Shown piece by piece: positions 32,227 through 33,909 of a stretch of 64,000 nucleotides of DNA. Below the pieces are notes generated by a model, which worked only from the letters and a program-made list of their open reading frames with translations, had not been told where the DNA came from and ran no database searches. This DNA is from an uncultured Acidimicrobiales bacterium. GTDB lineage: Bacteria > Actinomycetota > Geothermincolia > Fen-727 > Anoxymicrobiaceae. The stretch's first letter is position 1, and each line of letters opens with the position of its first letter. The stretch covers positions 64,825-128,824 of the forward strand of contig CAZEJS010000001.1 of NCBI GenBank assembly GCA_964512645.1, given 5' to 3'. A program made the translations under genes and the position numbers.

Positions 32227-33909
32227 TCAGGCCGAATCGACGAGCACCGAGGACTCCTTGAAGGTGCCGTAATGGGCCCGGTAGACGTCCCACACCTCTT
32301 CCAGCGTCGCGTAGGTTTCCACGGCTTCCATGGTGGGCTCGAAGAGGTTCTCGTCGCGCGCGGCGGCCTCCCGGAGCTTCTCCAGCGACTCGGACATCCT
32401 GCGGTTGTCGCGGCGCTCCTTGAGCCTGGCGATGCGCTCTTTCTGCGCGTCCTCCATCTCCTGCGTTATCTTCAACAGTTCGACCGGGGGCTCCTTTTCC
32501 TCGACGTACCTGTTGACCCCCACGATCACCTGCCGCCCGCTTTCGACGTCCTTCTGGTACCGCCAGGCGGCCCGCGCCACCTCCCGCTGGATGTATCCGT
32601 GCTCAACCGCCTCGAGCATCCCGCCCAGCTCGTCGATCCTGCGGATGTACTCCCGGGCCTCTTCCTCCATCTCCGCGGTAAGCTTCTCCACGAAGTAGGA
32701 ACCCCCCATCGGGTCTACCGTGTTGGCCACCCCGCTCTCCTCGGCGATGATCTGCTGGGTCCTGACCGCGATCCGCAGCGACTCCTCGGTGGGGAGCGCC
32801 AGGGCCTCGTCGTAGGCGTCGGTGTGGAGGCTCTGCGTCCCCCCGAGCACCGCCGCCAGCGCCTGGATGGTCGCCCTGACGATGTTGTTCAACGGCTGCT
32901 GGGCGGTAAGCGAACACCCCGCGGTCTGGGTGTGAAAGCGGACCATCATCGAGCGCGGGTCCTTCGCGGCGAACCTCTCCTTCATGATCCGCGCCCAGAG
33001 CCGCCGGGCGGCCCGGTACTTGGCGATCTCCTCGAAGAAGTCGTTGTGGGCGTTCCACATGAAGGTGAGGCGGGGGCCGAAGCTGTCGATGTCGAGCCCG
33101 CGGGCGAGGAACGAGCCAACGAAGTCAATTCCCTCGCTGATGGTGAACGCCAGCTCCTGGGCGGCGGTGCAGCCCTTCTCCCTTATCTGGTACCCGACGA
33201 TGCTTATCGGGTACCAGCGGGGCACGTTGCGGGTGCAGTACTCGACCACGTCGGTGCACAGCTTCAGTTCGGCGCGCCTGGGGAGCACCCGGACGTTGGC
33301 CGCGACGTCGCGGCAGAAGGTGTCGTTCTGGAAAGTCCCCTGGAGACTCGAGAAGTCGCAGCCCTGCCTCCTGGCGAGCGCGAAGTACATCGAGGGGATC
33401 GGCGGATGGGCGATGACCAGTGACGTGGAAACCCGGGCGAGCGGTATGTCGGCGAAGAGACGCTCCATGTCCTCCAGCGAGTCGCAGGGAACCCCGTCCC
33501 GCCCGACCTCACCGTGGGCCAGCGGGTGGTCGGAGTCGAGGCCGTGGATGGTGGGCATGTCGTAGGCGACGTTCAGCCCGGGGGCGCCCTTCTCGATGAG
33601 GTACTTGAGGCGCCGGTTGGACTCGTCGGGGTCCCCGAAGCCCATGAACTGCCTGATGGTCCAGGGGCGCCCGCGGTACATCGTCGAGTGTATCCCCCTG
33701 GTGAAGGGGTACTCCCCGGGGAACCCCAGGTCGCGCCGGTAGTCGAACTCCTCGGCGTCCCAGGGGCCCGCAAGGCGCTCGACCTCGCGGCCGGAGACCG
33801 TCTGGAAGGACTCCCTGCGCTCCGGCGCGGCTTCCAGCGCCGGCCCCAGCGTTTCCCGCTCCCAGCGCTCCCTGTCTCGCTTCAAACGGTCTATCTCGCT
33901 GCGGTCCAT
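32227..33909 (-). CDS. Divergent methylmalonyl-CoA-mutase-family large (catalytic) subunit, second paralog
   Basis: Full-length similarity to the MutB catalytic domain (FPGEYPFTRGI..TIRQFMGFGDP..NVAYDMPT..SGGT core). Phe at the Tyr89 position. The Arg207-equivalent region reads NDTFCRDVAANVRVLP, with neither Arg nor Gln in my by-eye alignment. ATG 33909 preceded by GGGGAGGG. Confidence 0.75.
   Translation of the reverse strand: MDRSEIDRLKRDRERWERETLGPALEAAPERRESFQTVSGREVERLAGPWDAEEFDYRRDLGFPGEYPFTRGIHSTMYRGRPWTIRQFMGFGDPDESNRRLKYLIEKGAPGLNVAYDMPTIHGLDSDHPLAHGEVGRDGVPCDSLEDMERLFADIPLARVSTSLVIAHPPIPSMYFALARRQGCDFSSLQGTFQNDTFCRDVAANVRVLPRRAELKLCTDVVEYCTRNVPRWYPISIVGYQIREKGCTAAQELAFTISEGIDFVGSFLARGLDIDSFGPRLTFMWNAHNDFFEEIAKYRAARRLWARIMKERFAAKDPRSMMVRFHTQTAGCSLTAQQPLNNIVRATIQALAAVLGGTQSLHTDAYDEALALPTEESLRIAVRTQQIIAEESGVANTVDPMGGSYFVEKLTAEMEEEAREYIRRIDELGGMLEAVEHGYIQREVARAAWRYQKDVESGRQVIVGVNRYVEEKEPPVELLKITQEMEDAQKERIARLKERRDNRRMSESLEKLREAAARDENLFEPTMEAVETYATLEEVWDVYRAHYGTFKESSVLVDSA

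Follow-up and report, generated by a model that had tools for sequence, protein, structure and literature searches.

A conserved clade of predicted B12-dependent acyl-CoA mutases with an altered substrate pocket in uncultured anaerobes

In methylmalonyl-CoA mutase (MCM), the substrate carboxylate is bound by Tyr89 and Arg207 (numbering of MutB), residues whose roles were reportedly described by Mancia and Evans. MutB mutants at His244 are said to be impaired, in work attributed to Maiti in 1999 and Thoma in 2000, with His244 reportedly forming a hydrogen bond to the migrating thioester carbonyl, and PDB entry 1e1c is the structure of the H244A mutant. The substrates of ethylmalonyl-CoA mutase (ECM) also carry a carboxylate, and this enzyme keeps the Tyr/Arg pair. 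To our knowledge, the B12-dependent acyl-CoA mutases as a whole have no more than about six known substrate pairs. Each new pair has opened a pathway, such as the ethylmalonyl-CoA cycle or the degradation of methyl tert-butyl ether (MTBE) and 2-hydroxyisobutyrate (2-HIBA) or of pivalate, or else a biotechnological route, as exemplified by engineered lactyl-CoA mutase (PMC11599936). Here we describe a divergent mutase gene (the target mutase, Table 1) in a 64,000 nt stretch of contig CAZEJS010000001.1 from an uncultured Acidimicrobiales bacterium, referred to as the window. The gene had been singled out in an earlier note, made from the sequence alone, as lacking the substrate signatures of MCM and isobutyryl-CoA mutase, and we find it to be a member of a sharply delimited clade in which Tyr89, Arg207 and also His244 are replaced throughout.

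Substrate-pocket residues and extent of the clade

The target mutase gene starts with an ATG, with a GGAGGG Shine-Dalgarno sequence 6 nt upstream, and its translation is identical to a database protein (P0001). The earlier note described the open reading frame (ORF) and the translated protein correctly, and the three peptides quoted there (TIRQFMGFG, NDTFCRDVAANVRV and HGLDSDHPLAHGEVGRDGVPCDS) are all present. The protein matched the Pfam profile MM_CoA_mutase (PF01642) over positions 2-512 of 512 (E 2.6e-199, 663 bits) and passed the generic NCBIfam model TIGR00641 (acid_CoA_mut_N; 679 bits, cut-off 304), and scored below the cut-offs of the NCBIfam equivalogs for MCM (NF006944; 546 bits, cut-off 876) and IcmF (307 bits, cut-off 1500). 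By its domain, its B12 partner and the accompanying MeaB gene, it is predicted to be a catalytic subunit of the adenosylcobalamin (AdoCbl)-dependent acyl-CoA mutase superfamily. The best match among solved structures, using HMMER against PDB, was HcmA, the large subunit of 2-hydroxyisobutyryl-CoA mutase (HCM; 4r3u, E 2.6e-149), with the human and Propionibacterium MCM structures next in rank. Foldseek with an AlphaFold2 model ranked the relatives by fold in the same order as by sequence (TM-score 0.77 to 4r3u); the model had a pLDDT of 69, with low values at residues 46-90 and 329-403, and was used for secondary structure.

To map the pocket residues, the protein was aligned pairwise with HcmA, human MMUT and MutB in HMMER and placed in three MAFFT alignments; all of these agreed and were free of gaps in the relevant segments. 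The MCM signature of Tyr89, Arg207 and His244 is absent altogether, with both carboxylate ligands lost (Tyr89 to Phe88, Arg207 to Ala204) and Gln241 in place of His244. The Phe had been proposed in the earlier note and was found in every computed alignment; of the 'Ala or Asn' suggested there for the Arg207 position, the Ala stands, and the Asn proved to be the following residue, as is Asn208 in MutB. The signature of isobutyryl-CoA mutase (ICM) is represented by Phe at the Tyr89 position only, with Ala204 instead of Gln at the Arg207 position, and the HCM residues Ile90 and Asp117 are replaced by Phe88 and Ala115, HcmA and its homologue Xaut_5021 showing Ile/Asp/Gln in the same alignment. No Tyr/Arg, Phe/Gln or Ile/Asp pair was restored by any of the computed alignments. 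The LKE[FY] motif of other mutases reads [FI]CRD in the clade, and the DSD region, which had been flagged as odd, reads GVPCDS, with Ala142 changed to Pro. Further substitutions relative to MutB are Ser114 to Asn, Thr166 to Val, Asn168 to Ala, Asn236 to Tyr, Ser241 to Val, Ala248 to Lys and Phe287 to Met, and MutB Asn366 corresponds to Asp in the target mutase and in many, not all, clade members. Despite these pocket changes, the CoA- and adenosyl-binding residues are retained, namely the Arg residues for the CoA phosphate (RGRPWTIRQ) together with Gln197, Tyr243, Gln330 and Glu370.

We surveyed the 120 best matches to the target mutase, of which the 82 full-length proteins with at least 62% identity define the clade. 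The Phe/Ala/Gln plus CRD pattern was present in 82/82 of these (62-100% identity, 62-89% for members other than the target), and therefore is not due to chance or sequencing error, and the listed homologues at 55-60% identity were all canonical, with either Tyr/Arg/His or Phe/Gln/His and the LKE[FY] motif. Position 244 was His in 35/35 out-group sequences and Gln in 82/82 clade members, and Lys202 and Glu203 were likewise invariant in 35/35 out-group sequences, as were CRD and Ala204 within the clade. Since the altered residues are invariant over this range of identity and in two phyla, they point to purifying selection on a new active site rather than decay.

Three neighbour-joining (NJ) analyses using simple distances, which included MutB, human MMUT, HcmA, Xaut_5021, ICM-type sequences and Xaut_5043, all recovered the clade as monophyletic with 100% bootstrap. 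It was never placed within the MCM group (support 97-100%), the pair of HCM proteins HcmA and Xaut_5021 (100%) or the ICM-type groups, and also stood apart from the Xaut_5043 group; a place within one of these subfamilies, which we had looked for, was thus not found. Support below the clade level was weak, with one NJ analysis joining the clade with Xaut_5043 and an archaeal group at 58%. The hosts are Actinomycetota (Candidatus Anoxymicrobiaceae/Geothermincolia and relatives) and Desulfobacterales/'Deltaproteobacteria', with several of the Desulfobacterales loci from Guaymas Basin bins, and the loci taken from species-representative genomes were metagenome-assembled genomes (MAGs) in 20/20 cases. 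No cultured organism or named isolate was present among the 120 best homologues and the 20 loci, no protein of Desulfococcus or of Kyrpidia, whose species K. tusciae has the (R)-specific 2-hydroxyisobutyryl-CoA mutase (RCM), was among the 120 best matches, and a literature search found no paper describing the clade. On the strength of its sequences, we regard the clade as a distinct, conserved and uncharacterised subfamily of predicted mutases, seen only in uncultured anaerobes. In one Guaymas MAG the clade member (L023, 7395-9178) is divided over two ORFs (7395-8144 and 8159-9178), by a frameshift or an assembly error.

A family-wide residue table, comprising the 150 best representatives of 50%-identity clusters (P0121-P0270) with selected clade members and references, showed that about half of the sequences are non-canonical at positions 89/207/244, some of which may be inactive beta-type subunits. 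Unassigned mutase clades are therefore common, and although the divergent signatures reported for the target are real, the case is less singular than the earlier note implied. The clade stands out by its clean delimitation, its occurrence in two phyla, the replacement of His244, its complete accessory genes and its recurrent context; together these features make it directly testable, and with a sharply bounded, strongly constrained new pocket and all accessory genes identified, direct expression and screening are possible.

Genomic context of the mutase genes

The target mutase lies in a long minus-strand operon, which has the TetR-family regulator at its head and includes the ADP-forming acyl-CoA synthetase (Table 1). 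The stand-alone B12 domain and MeaB, which the earlier note had placed some 6 kb away in the same operon and paired with the mutase, were located there, and the pairing is supported by the same operon order in about 10 Actinomycetota MAGs and by direct adjacency of the three genes in other lineages. The small subunit matched Pfam B12-binding (E 3e-24) and TIGR00640 (154 bits, cut-off 57), with DGHDRG as its DxHxxG motif. The enoyl-CoA hydratase (ECH, crotonase) next to the mutase has both catalytic Glu residues (GGGCE..., QLEINYG) and is a probable pathway partner; an identity as YgfG-type (alkyl)malonyl-CoA decarboxylase, which would favour an alkylsuccinate pathway, was rejected on the presence of both hydratase glutamates. 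The short-chain dehydrogenase/reductase (SDR) on the other side is nearest to the acetoacetyl-CoA reductase and 3-oxoacyl-ACP reductase models, and is probably a 3-hydroxyacyl-CoA / 3-oxoacyl-CoA oxidoreductase. None of the other neighbours (acyl-CoA dehydrogenases (ACADs), thiolase, family III CoA-transferase and VAO-type flavoproteins) reached an NCBIfam equivalog cut-off, PDB searches with the AOR-N-only and GATase-like proteins gave nothing informative on the mutase, and no cobalamin riboswitch or other Rfam element was detected in the window.

Every locus examined has a B12 subunit gene next to the clade mutase or close to it, and most of the loci read also have MeaB. The operon order kept in Actinomycetota has B12-MeaB-mutase-SDR as its core, with the mutase-SDR adjacency preserved in all Actinomycetota loci and in the L026 lineage. 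The flavoprotein-ECH module is accessory, as it is missing in two MAGs (L011 and L013) and doubled in three (L007, L008 and L010); ECH genes as such occur near clade mutases in both phyla. The core in Desulfobacterales is mutase-B12-MeaB-short-chain ACAD-thiolase-long ACAD-family III CoA-transferase, in clusters which are also headed by a TetR gene and further contain ECH, SCPx-type thiolase/DUF35, 3-hydroxyacyl-CoA dehydrogenase (HADH), CoA ligase, BKACE or PTB/BUK; of these, ACAD, thiolase, HADH, PTB/BUK and CoA transferase represent the butyryl/crotonyl/acetoacetyl-CoA trunk. The L026 lineage has the order HADH-SDR-mutase-B12-thiolase-three ACADs, and locus L001 has ECH-MeaB-mutase-B12 beside an AorABC-like aldehyde oxidoreductase, an OYE-type reductase and a CoA ligase. 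The common context is the enoyl/3-hydroxyacyl/3-oxoacyl-CoA part of short-chain beta-oxidation.

The window also contains a complete and separate ICM-type operon (9207-14483, minus strand), the presence of which makes it unlikely that the two paralogues are redundant. A third, very divergent mutase large subunit adjoins clade members in two other loci (L018, 9365-11044; L026, 18954-20320), with RQ[YF]AGF changed to QQ[MV][VF][HG]GYG and GTIQND to GN[ST]MNW. The region 22710-31349 resembles an unusual Hdr-type redox module that is kept beside the mutase in Actinomycetota MAGs, and the 250-aa protein following the acyl-CoA synthetase matches the methanogenesis marker Mmp4/MtxX (151 bits, below the cut-off of 190), here in a bacterium. 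Elsewhere in the window are a class II-like (B12-dependent) ribonucleotide reductase with a TSCPD domain (48362-50569, minus strand) and a radical-SAM/SPASM gene (46139-47461); the ribonucleotide reductase and the adenosyltransferase indicate that the organism relies on cobamides.

Table 1. Features of the target mutase operon, pocket codons of the target mutase and the ICM-type operon in the window
Feature	Position	Strand	Details
TetR-family regulator	40355-40975	-	TetR_N E 4e-16; position kept in Actinomycetota loci
Stand-alone B12-binding small subunit	39961-40362	-	134 aa from ATG at 40362; longest ORF from 40398
MeaB G-protein chaperone	38999-39964	-	Pfam MeaB E 5.6e-88; TIGR00750 340 bits, cut-off 241; P-loop GSPGSGKST
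VAO/PCMH-type flavoprotein	37499-38950	-	GlcDEF-like module (34746-38950)
Fe-S CCG protein	36295-37497	-	GlcDEF-like module
VAO/PCMH-type flavoprotein	34746-36281	-	GlcDEF-like module
Enoyl-CoA hydratase (crotonase)	33945-34718	-	Directly upstream of mutase; ECH_1 E 3e-63
Target mutase: divergent acyl-CoA mutase large (catalytic, TIM-barrel) subunit	32227-33909	-	560 aa, full-length MM_CoA_mutase
Phe88 codon	33646-33648	-	MutB Tyr89; invariant in 82/82 clade members
Cys199-Arg200-Asp201-Val-Ala-Ala204 codons	33298-33315	-	Replace Lys202-Glu203-Phe/Tyr204 and position 207
Ala204 codon	33298-33300	-	MutB Arg207 / HcmA Gln208 (Arg in MCM; Gln in ICM, HCM)
Gln241 codon	33187-33189	-	MutB His244
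FabG/PhaB-like SDR	31381-32175	-	Directly downstream of mutase; adh_short E 1e-58
Ferredoxin	within 22710-31349, after SDR	-	
AOR-N-domain protein	29720-30994	-	424 aa; only N-terminal domain of aldehyde:ferredoxin oxidoreductase (AOR)
GATase/BPL_N-like protein	28388-29713	-	441 aa; no solved relative
HdrA, bona fide	26452-28395	-	PDB 8rvu E 1e-209
SsuA-family (aliphatic sulfonate type) ABC transporter	23920-26455	-	Binding protein passes NCBIfam cut-off
HdrBC/TfrB-like CCG protein	22710-24041	-	
ADP-forming acyl-CoA synthetase alpha subunit, then 250-aa protein	20305-22518	-	
CobA-type adenosyltransferase	13578-14483	-	130-aa N-terminal extension
ICM-type mutase large subunit	11917-13560	-	Phe/Gln/His signature; 51% identical to target mutase
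B12 small subunit of ICM-type mutase	11481-11978	-	
Crotonase of ICM-type operon	10508-11320	-	
Short-chain ACAD of ICM-type operon	9207-10397	-	

Proposed reaction and alternative explanations

The earlier note had suggested a carbon-skeleton rearrangement of a substrate not yet assigned, and the results support this. Judged by its residues and accessory genes, the target is probably a functional mutase with a specificity other than that of MCM, ICM or HCM. The loss of the MCM carboxylate ligands, together with the smallest side chain at position 207, suggests that its substrate is not succinyl- or methylmalonyl-CoA and is likely to be bulkier at the position-207 side than isobutyryl-CoA, and the substrate is probably not simply isobutyryl/butyryl-CoA or 2-hydroxyisobutyryl/3-hydroxybutyryl-CoA. 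The constant neighbours, hydratase, SDR or HADH, and thiolase, suggest 3-hydroxyacyl-CoA, or a stage close to it, as the point where the product joins beta-oxidation. Our favoured explanation, in which as a whole we place a little less than even confidence, is a working mutase for a non-carboxylated, branched and possibly hydroxylated short acyl-CoA; any particular substrate class is doubtful.

According to this explanation, the large subunit would assemble with the stand-alone B12 subunit, and MeaB would load and protect the enzyme. Following the chemistry of the family, the Co-C bond would undergo homolysis, the 5'-deoxyadenosyl radical would abstract a hydrogen, and the CoA-thioester group would make a 1,2-shift, in which Gln241 may take over from His244 in donating a hydrogen bond to the carbonyl that migrates. 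The substrate would be an acyl-CoA of about C4-C6 with no free carboxylate by the reaction centre, alpha-branched and possibly hydroxylated. Its rearrangement would lift an obstacle to beta-oxidation, and the product would then be taken up by the hydratase next to the mutase, by the SDR or a 3-hydroxyacyl-CoA dehydrogenase, and by a thiolase. Several points weigh against this explanation: the substrate class is derived from gene context and residue logic only, and the mediocre AlphaFold2 model cannot place the changed residues at the substrate; the His244 to Gln change might reduce activity; the new invariant residues Arg200, Arg207 and Asp201 of the target could bind a charged group, and hence a charged or dicarboxylyl acyl-CoA; and the contexts differ between the phyla, so that the physiological substrate need not be the same throughout. 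The 58% grouping with Xaut_5043 and the archaeal group could moreover be the result of long-branch attraction.

The relationship with the archaeal (Aigarchaeota/Geothermarchaeales) group was also assessed independently of trees, using the 143 columns with a conservation of at least 90% among canonical sequences. Changes were present in 21/143 columns in the clade and also in 21/143 in the archaeal group, with 11 of the changed columns common to both (p = 7e-6) and the same new residue present in five of these 11 (Asn114, Pro142, Leu165, Val/Ile166 and Tyr236). Xaut_5043 was also altered at seven of the clade's changed columns, including K202, E203 and S241, an overlap which was not significant (p = 0.15). 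The chances seem evenly balanced that the clade performs a 1,2-acyl shift outside those of MCM, ICM, ECM, HCM/RCM and pivalyl-CoA mutase (PCM), with Gln for the catalytic His, and forms a wider 'remodelled-barrel' branch with the PaaK-linked archaeal group. The substrate of such a shift may be a gem-dimethyl or hydroxy-branched acyl-CoA that arises when branched, terpenoid or hydrocarbon-derived acids are degraded anaerobically; conversion of methylsuccinyl-CoA to glutaryl-CoA, or a natural mutase converting lactoyl-CoA to 3-hydroxypropionyl-CoA, may also be considered.

The archaeal mutases themselves (L029, 8001-10093; L030, 8001-10099; P0124, P0282-P0294) have Val/Ile/Leu at position 89, Gly/Ala at 207 and partly Gln at 244, with their genes located beside PaaK-type CoA ligases, and may represent a further unassigned specificity, perhaps for aryl- or bulky alkyl-acyl-CoA. 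P0124 was tried as a proxy for RCM and rejected after a second homology search led to this uncharacterised group.

A more specific version of the favoured explanation is a hydroxyacyl-CoA mutase that evolved independently of HCM/RCM and interconverts 2-hydroxy-2-methylacyl-CoA with 3-hydroxyacyl-CoA, or the members of some similar hydroxy-acyl pair, with the SDR oxidising the 3-hydroxyacyl-CoA. This would fit with HcmA being the best solved relative by sequence and fold, with the FabG/PhaB-like SDR that adjoins the mutase in the Actinomycetota loci and L026, with the new polar side chains Asn113, Asp201, Gln241 and Asp364, and with AOR-type aldehyde oxidoreductase genes nearby in two lineages; the acetone clusters of Desulfococcus/Desulfosarcina similarly pair an RcmAB-like mutase with a '3-oxoacyl-ACP reductase', which is a 3-hydroxybutyryl-CoA dehydrogenase. 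However, the HCM-defining Ile90 and Asp117 are missing, no thiamine-dependent 2-hydroxyacyl-CoA lyase/synthase is present in any locus, and the grouping with HcmA/Xaut_5021 had 0% bootstrap, and we consider this version possible but rather unlikely. We also rejected the idea that the clade is the acetone-pathway HCM of Desulfococcus/Desulfosarcina: in Desulfococcus biacutus the mutase of this pathway has been described as RcmAB-like (PMC7176365), no thiamine pyrophosphate (TPP) enzyme occurs in any locus, and no named isolate was found in the clade.

A drifted ICM iso-enzyme, acting as isobutyryl/butyryl (or n-valeryl/2-methylbutyryl) mutase and chemically redundant with the ICM-type paralogue, is unlikely. 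Such an enzyme would have had to change Gln198/207 to Ala, His244 to Gln and about 20 otherwise conserved columns and then freeze them, and it would exist next to a second, ICM-type, mutase large subunit in the window and to the very divergent type in L018, without an ACAD beside the mutase in the Actinomycetota operon. Its attraction lies in Phe at position 89, in the nearest outsiders (55-60% identity) being ICM- or MCM-type split mutases, and in the Desulfobacterales clusters, where short-chain ACAD, acetoacetyl-CoA-type thiolase, HADH and PTB/BUK would suit an isobutyrate/butyrate pathway.

More improbable still is a dicarboxylyl-CoA mutase, in which the carboxylate would be farther from the migrating centre than in succinyl-CoA, with a relocated arginine as its ligand, as in a conversion of methylsuccinyl-CoA to glutaryl-CoA or of alkyl-substituted succinyl/malonyl-CoA from hydrocarbon activation. 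Invariant Arg residues do lie four residues before and three after the lost Arg207 (target Arg200 and Arg207), and family III CoA-transferases, nearest to succinate-glutarate and succinyl-CoA:mesaconate transferases, are found in L026, L027 and L028; Guaymas Basin MAGs are the source of several of the Desulfobacterales members, and a split mutase of the HCM subclass has been proposed to convert hexylmalonyl-CoA to pentylsuccinyl-CoA (PMC5719088). Against this, Tyr89 is Phe, the adjacent ECH is a hydratase by its glutamates and not of the YgfG type, no alkylsuccinate synthase or carboxyl-transferase is present in any locus, and all neighbours scored below the equivalog cut-offs of glutaryl-CoA dehydrogenase and of the transferases just mentioned. 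Finally, a catalytically dead or regulatory paralogue like the MutA beta subunit, for which the missing His244, the missing LKE motif, otherwise universal, and the degenerate active sites of many family representatives might speak, is very improbable given the mutase's own B12 subunit and MeaB, the kept adenosyl- and CoA-binding residues, the invariance of the altered pocket across two phyla, and the much greater divergence of MutA-like chains (PDB 1e1c_B E 5e-30, against 1e-120 for MutB).

As a working mutase for a branched short acyl-CoA, the clade would test how essential His244 is for the rearrangement. It may also explain how uncultured Anoxymicrobiaceae/Geothermincolia and Desulfobacterales of sediment and subsurface pass a branch point in anaerobic acyl-CoA oxidation.

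Comparison with characterised mutases

The closest structural parallel is HcmAB of Aquincola tertiaricarbonis (4R3U; homologue Xaut_5021), which has the same split layout of large (~560 aa) and B12 (~135 aa) subunits with a MeaB-type chaperone, is the best solved match in both sequence and fold, and for which an SDR would be a plausible next enzyme. The target mutase differs from HcmA (~42% identity) in Ile90 to Phe, Asp117 to Ala, Gln208 to Ala and His to Gln, with no bootstrap support for a common group. ICM/IcmF and the ICM-type split mutases have Phe at the Tyr89 position and a beta-oxidation context as in the clade, and ICM-type proteins are among the closest non-clade sequences, whereas Gln198 is changed to Ala, His244 to Gln and LKE[FY] to [FI]CRD in the clade. 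MutB and human MMUT (~41% identity) agree with the target in fold and in the way cofactor and chaperone are used, yet all three of Tyr89, Arg207 and His244 are replaced in the target, and the Tyr/Arg pair of ECM is equally absent.

The plasmid pXAUT01 of Xanthobacter autotrophicus Py2 carries two split mutase clusters (L033, 15159-17281; L031, 3162-7689), both accompanied by MeaB and a PaaK-type ligase; the signature of Xaut_5021 is exactly that of HcmA, and the pocket of Xaut_5043 is heavily remodelled. Xaut_5043/5044 is presumably the pivalyl-CoA/isovaleryl-CoA mutase PCM, an assignment that reportedly goes back to PCM work of Kitanishi et al. in 2015. Its cluster consists of TetR, B12 subunit, mutase and MeaB, and it resembles the target in the loss of Lys202/Glu203 and in Ser241 to Val and Asn366 to Asp. 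However, identity is only 37.5%, position 89 is Leu instead of Phe, position 207 also differs, His244 is kept with Tyr243 changed to Gln, and the strand with Ser114/Ala116 is wholly different (AISLLPCCSG); neither clustering nor pocket residues thus place the target with Xaut_5043, the deep grouping being weak.

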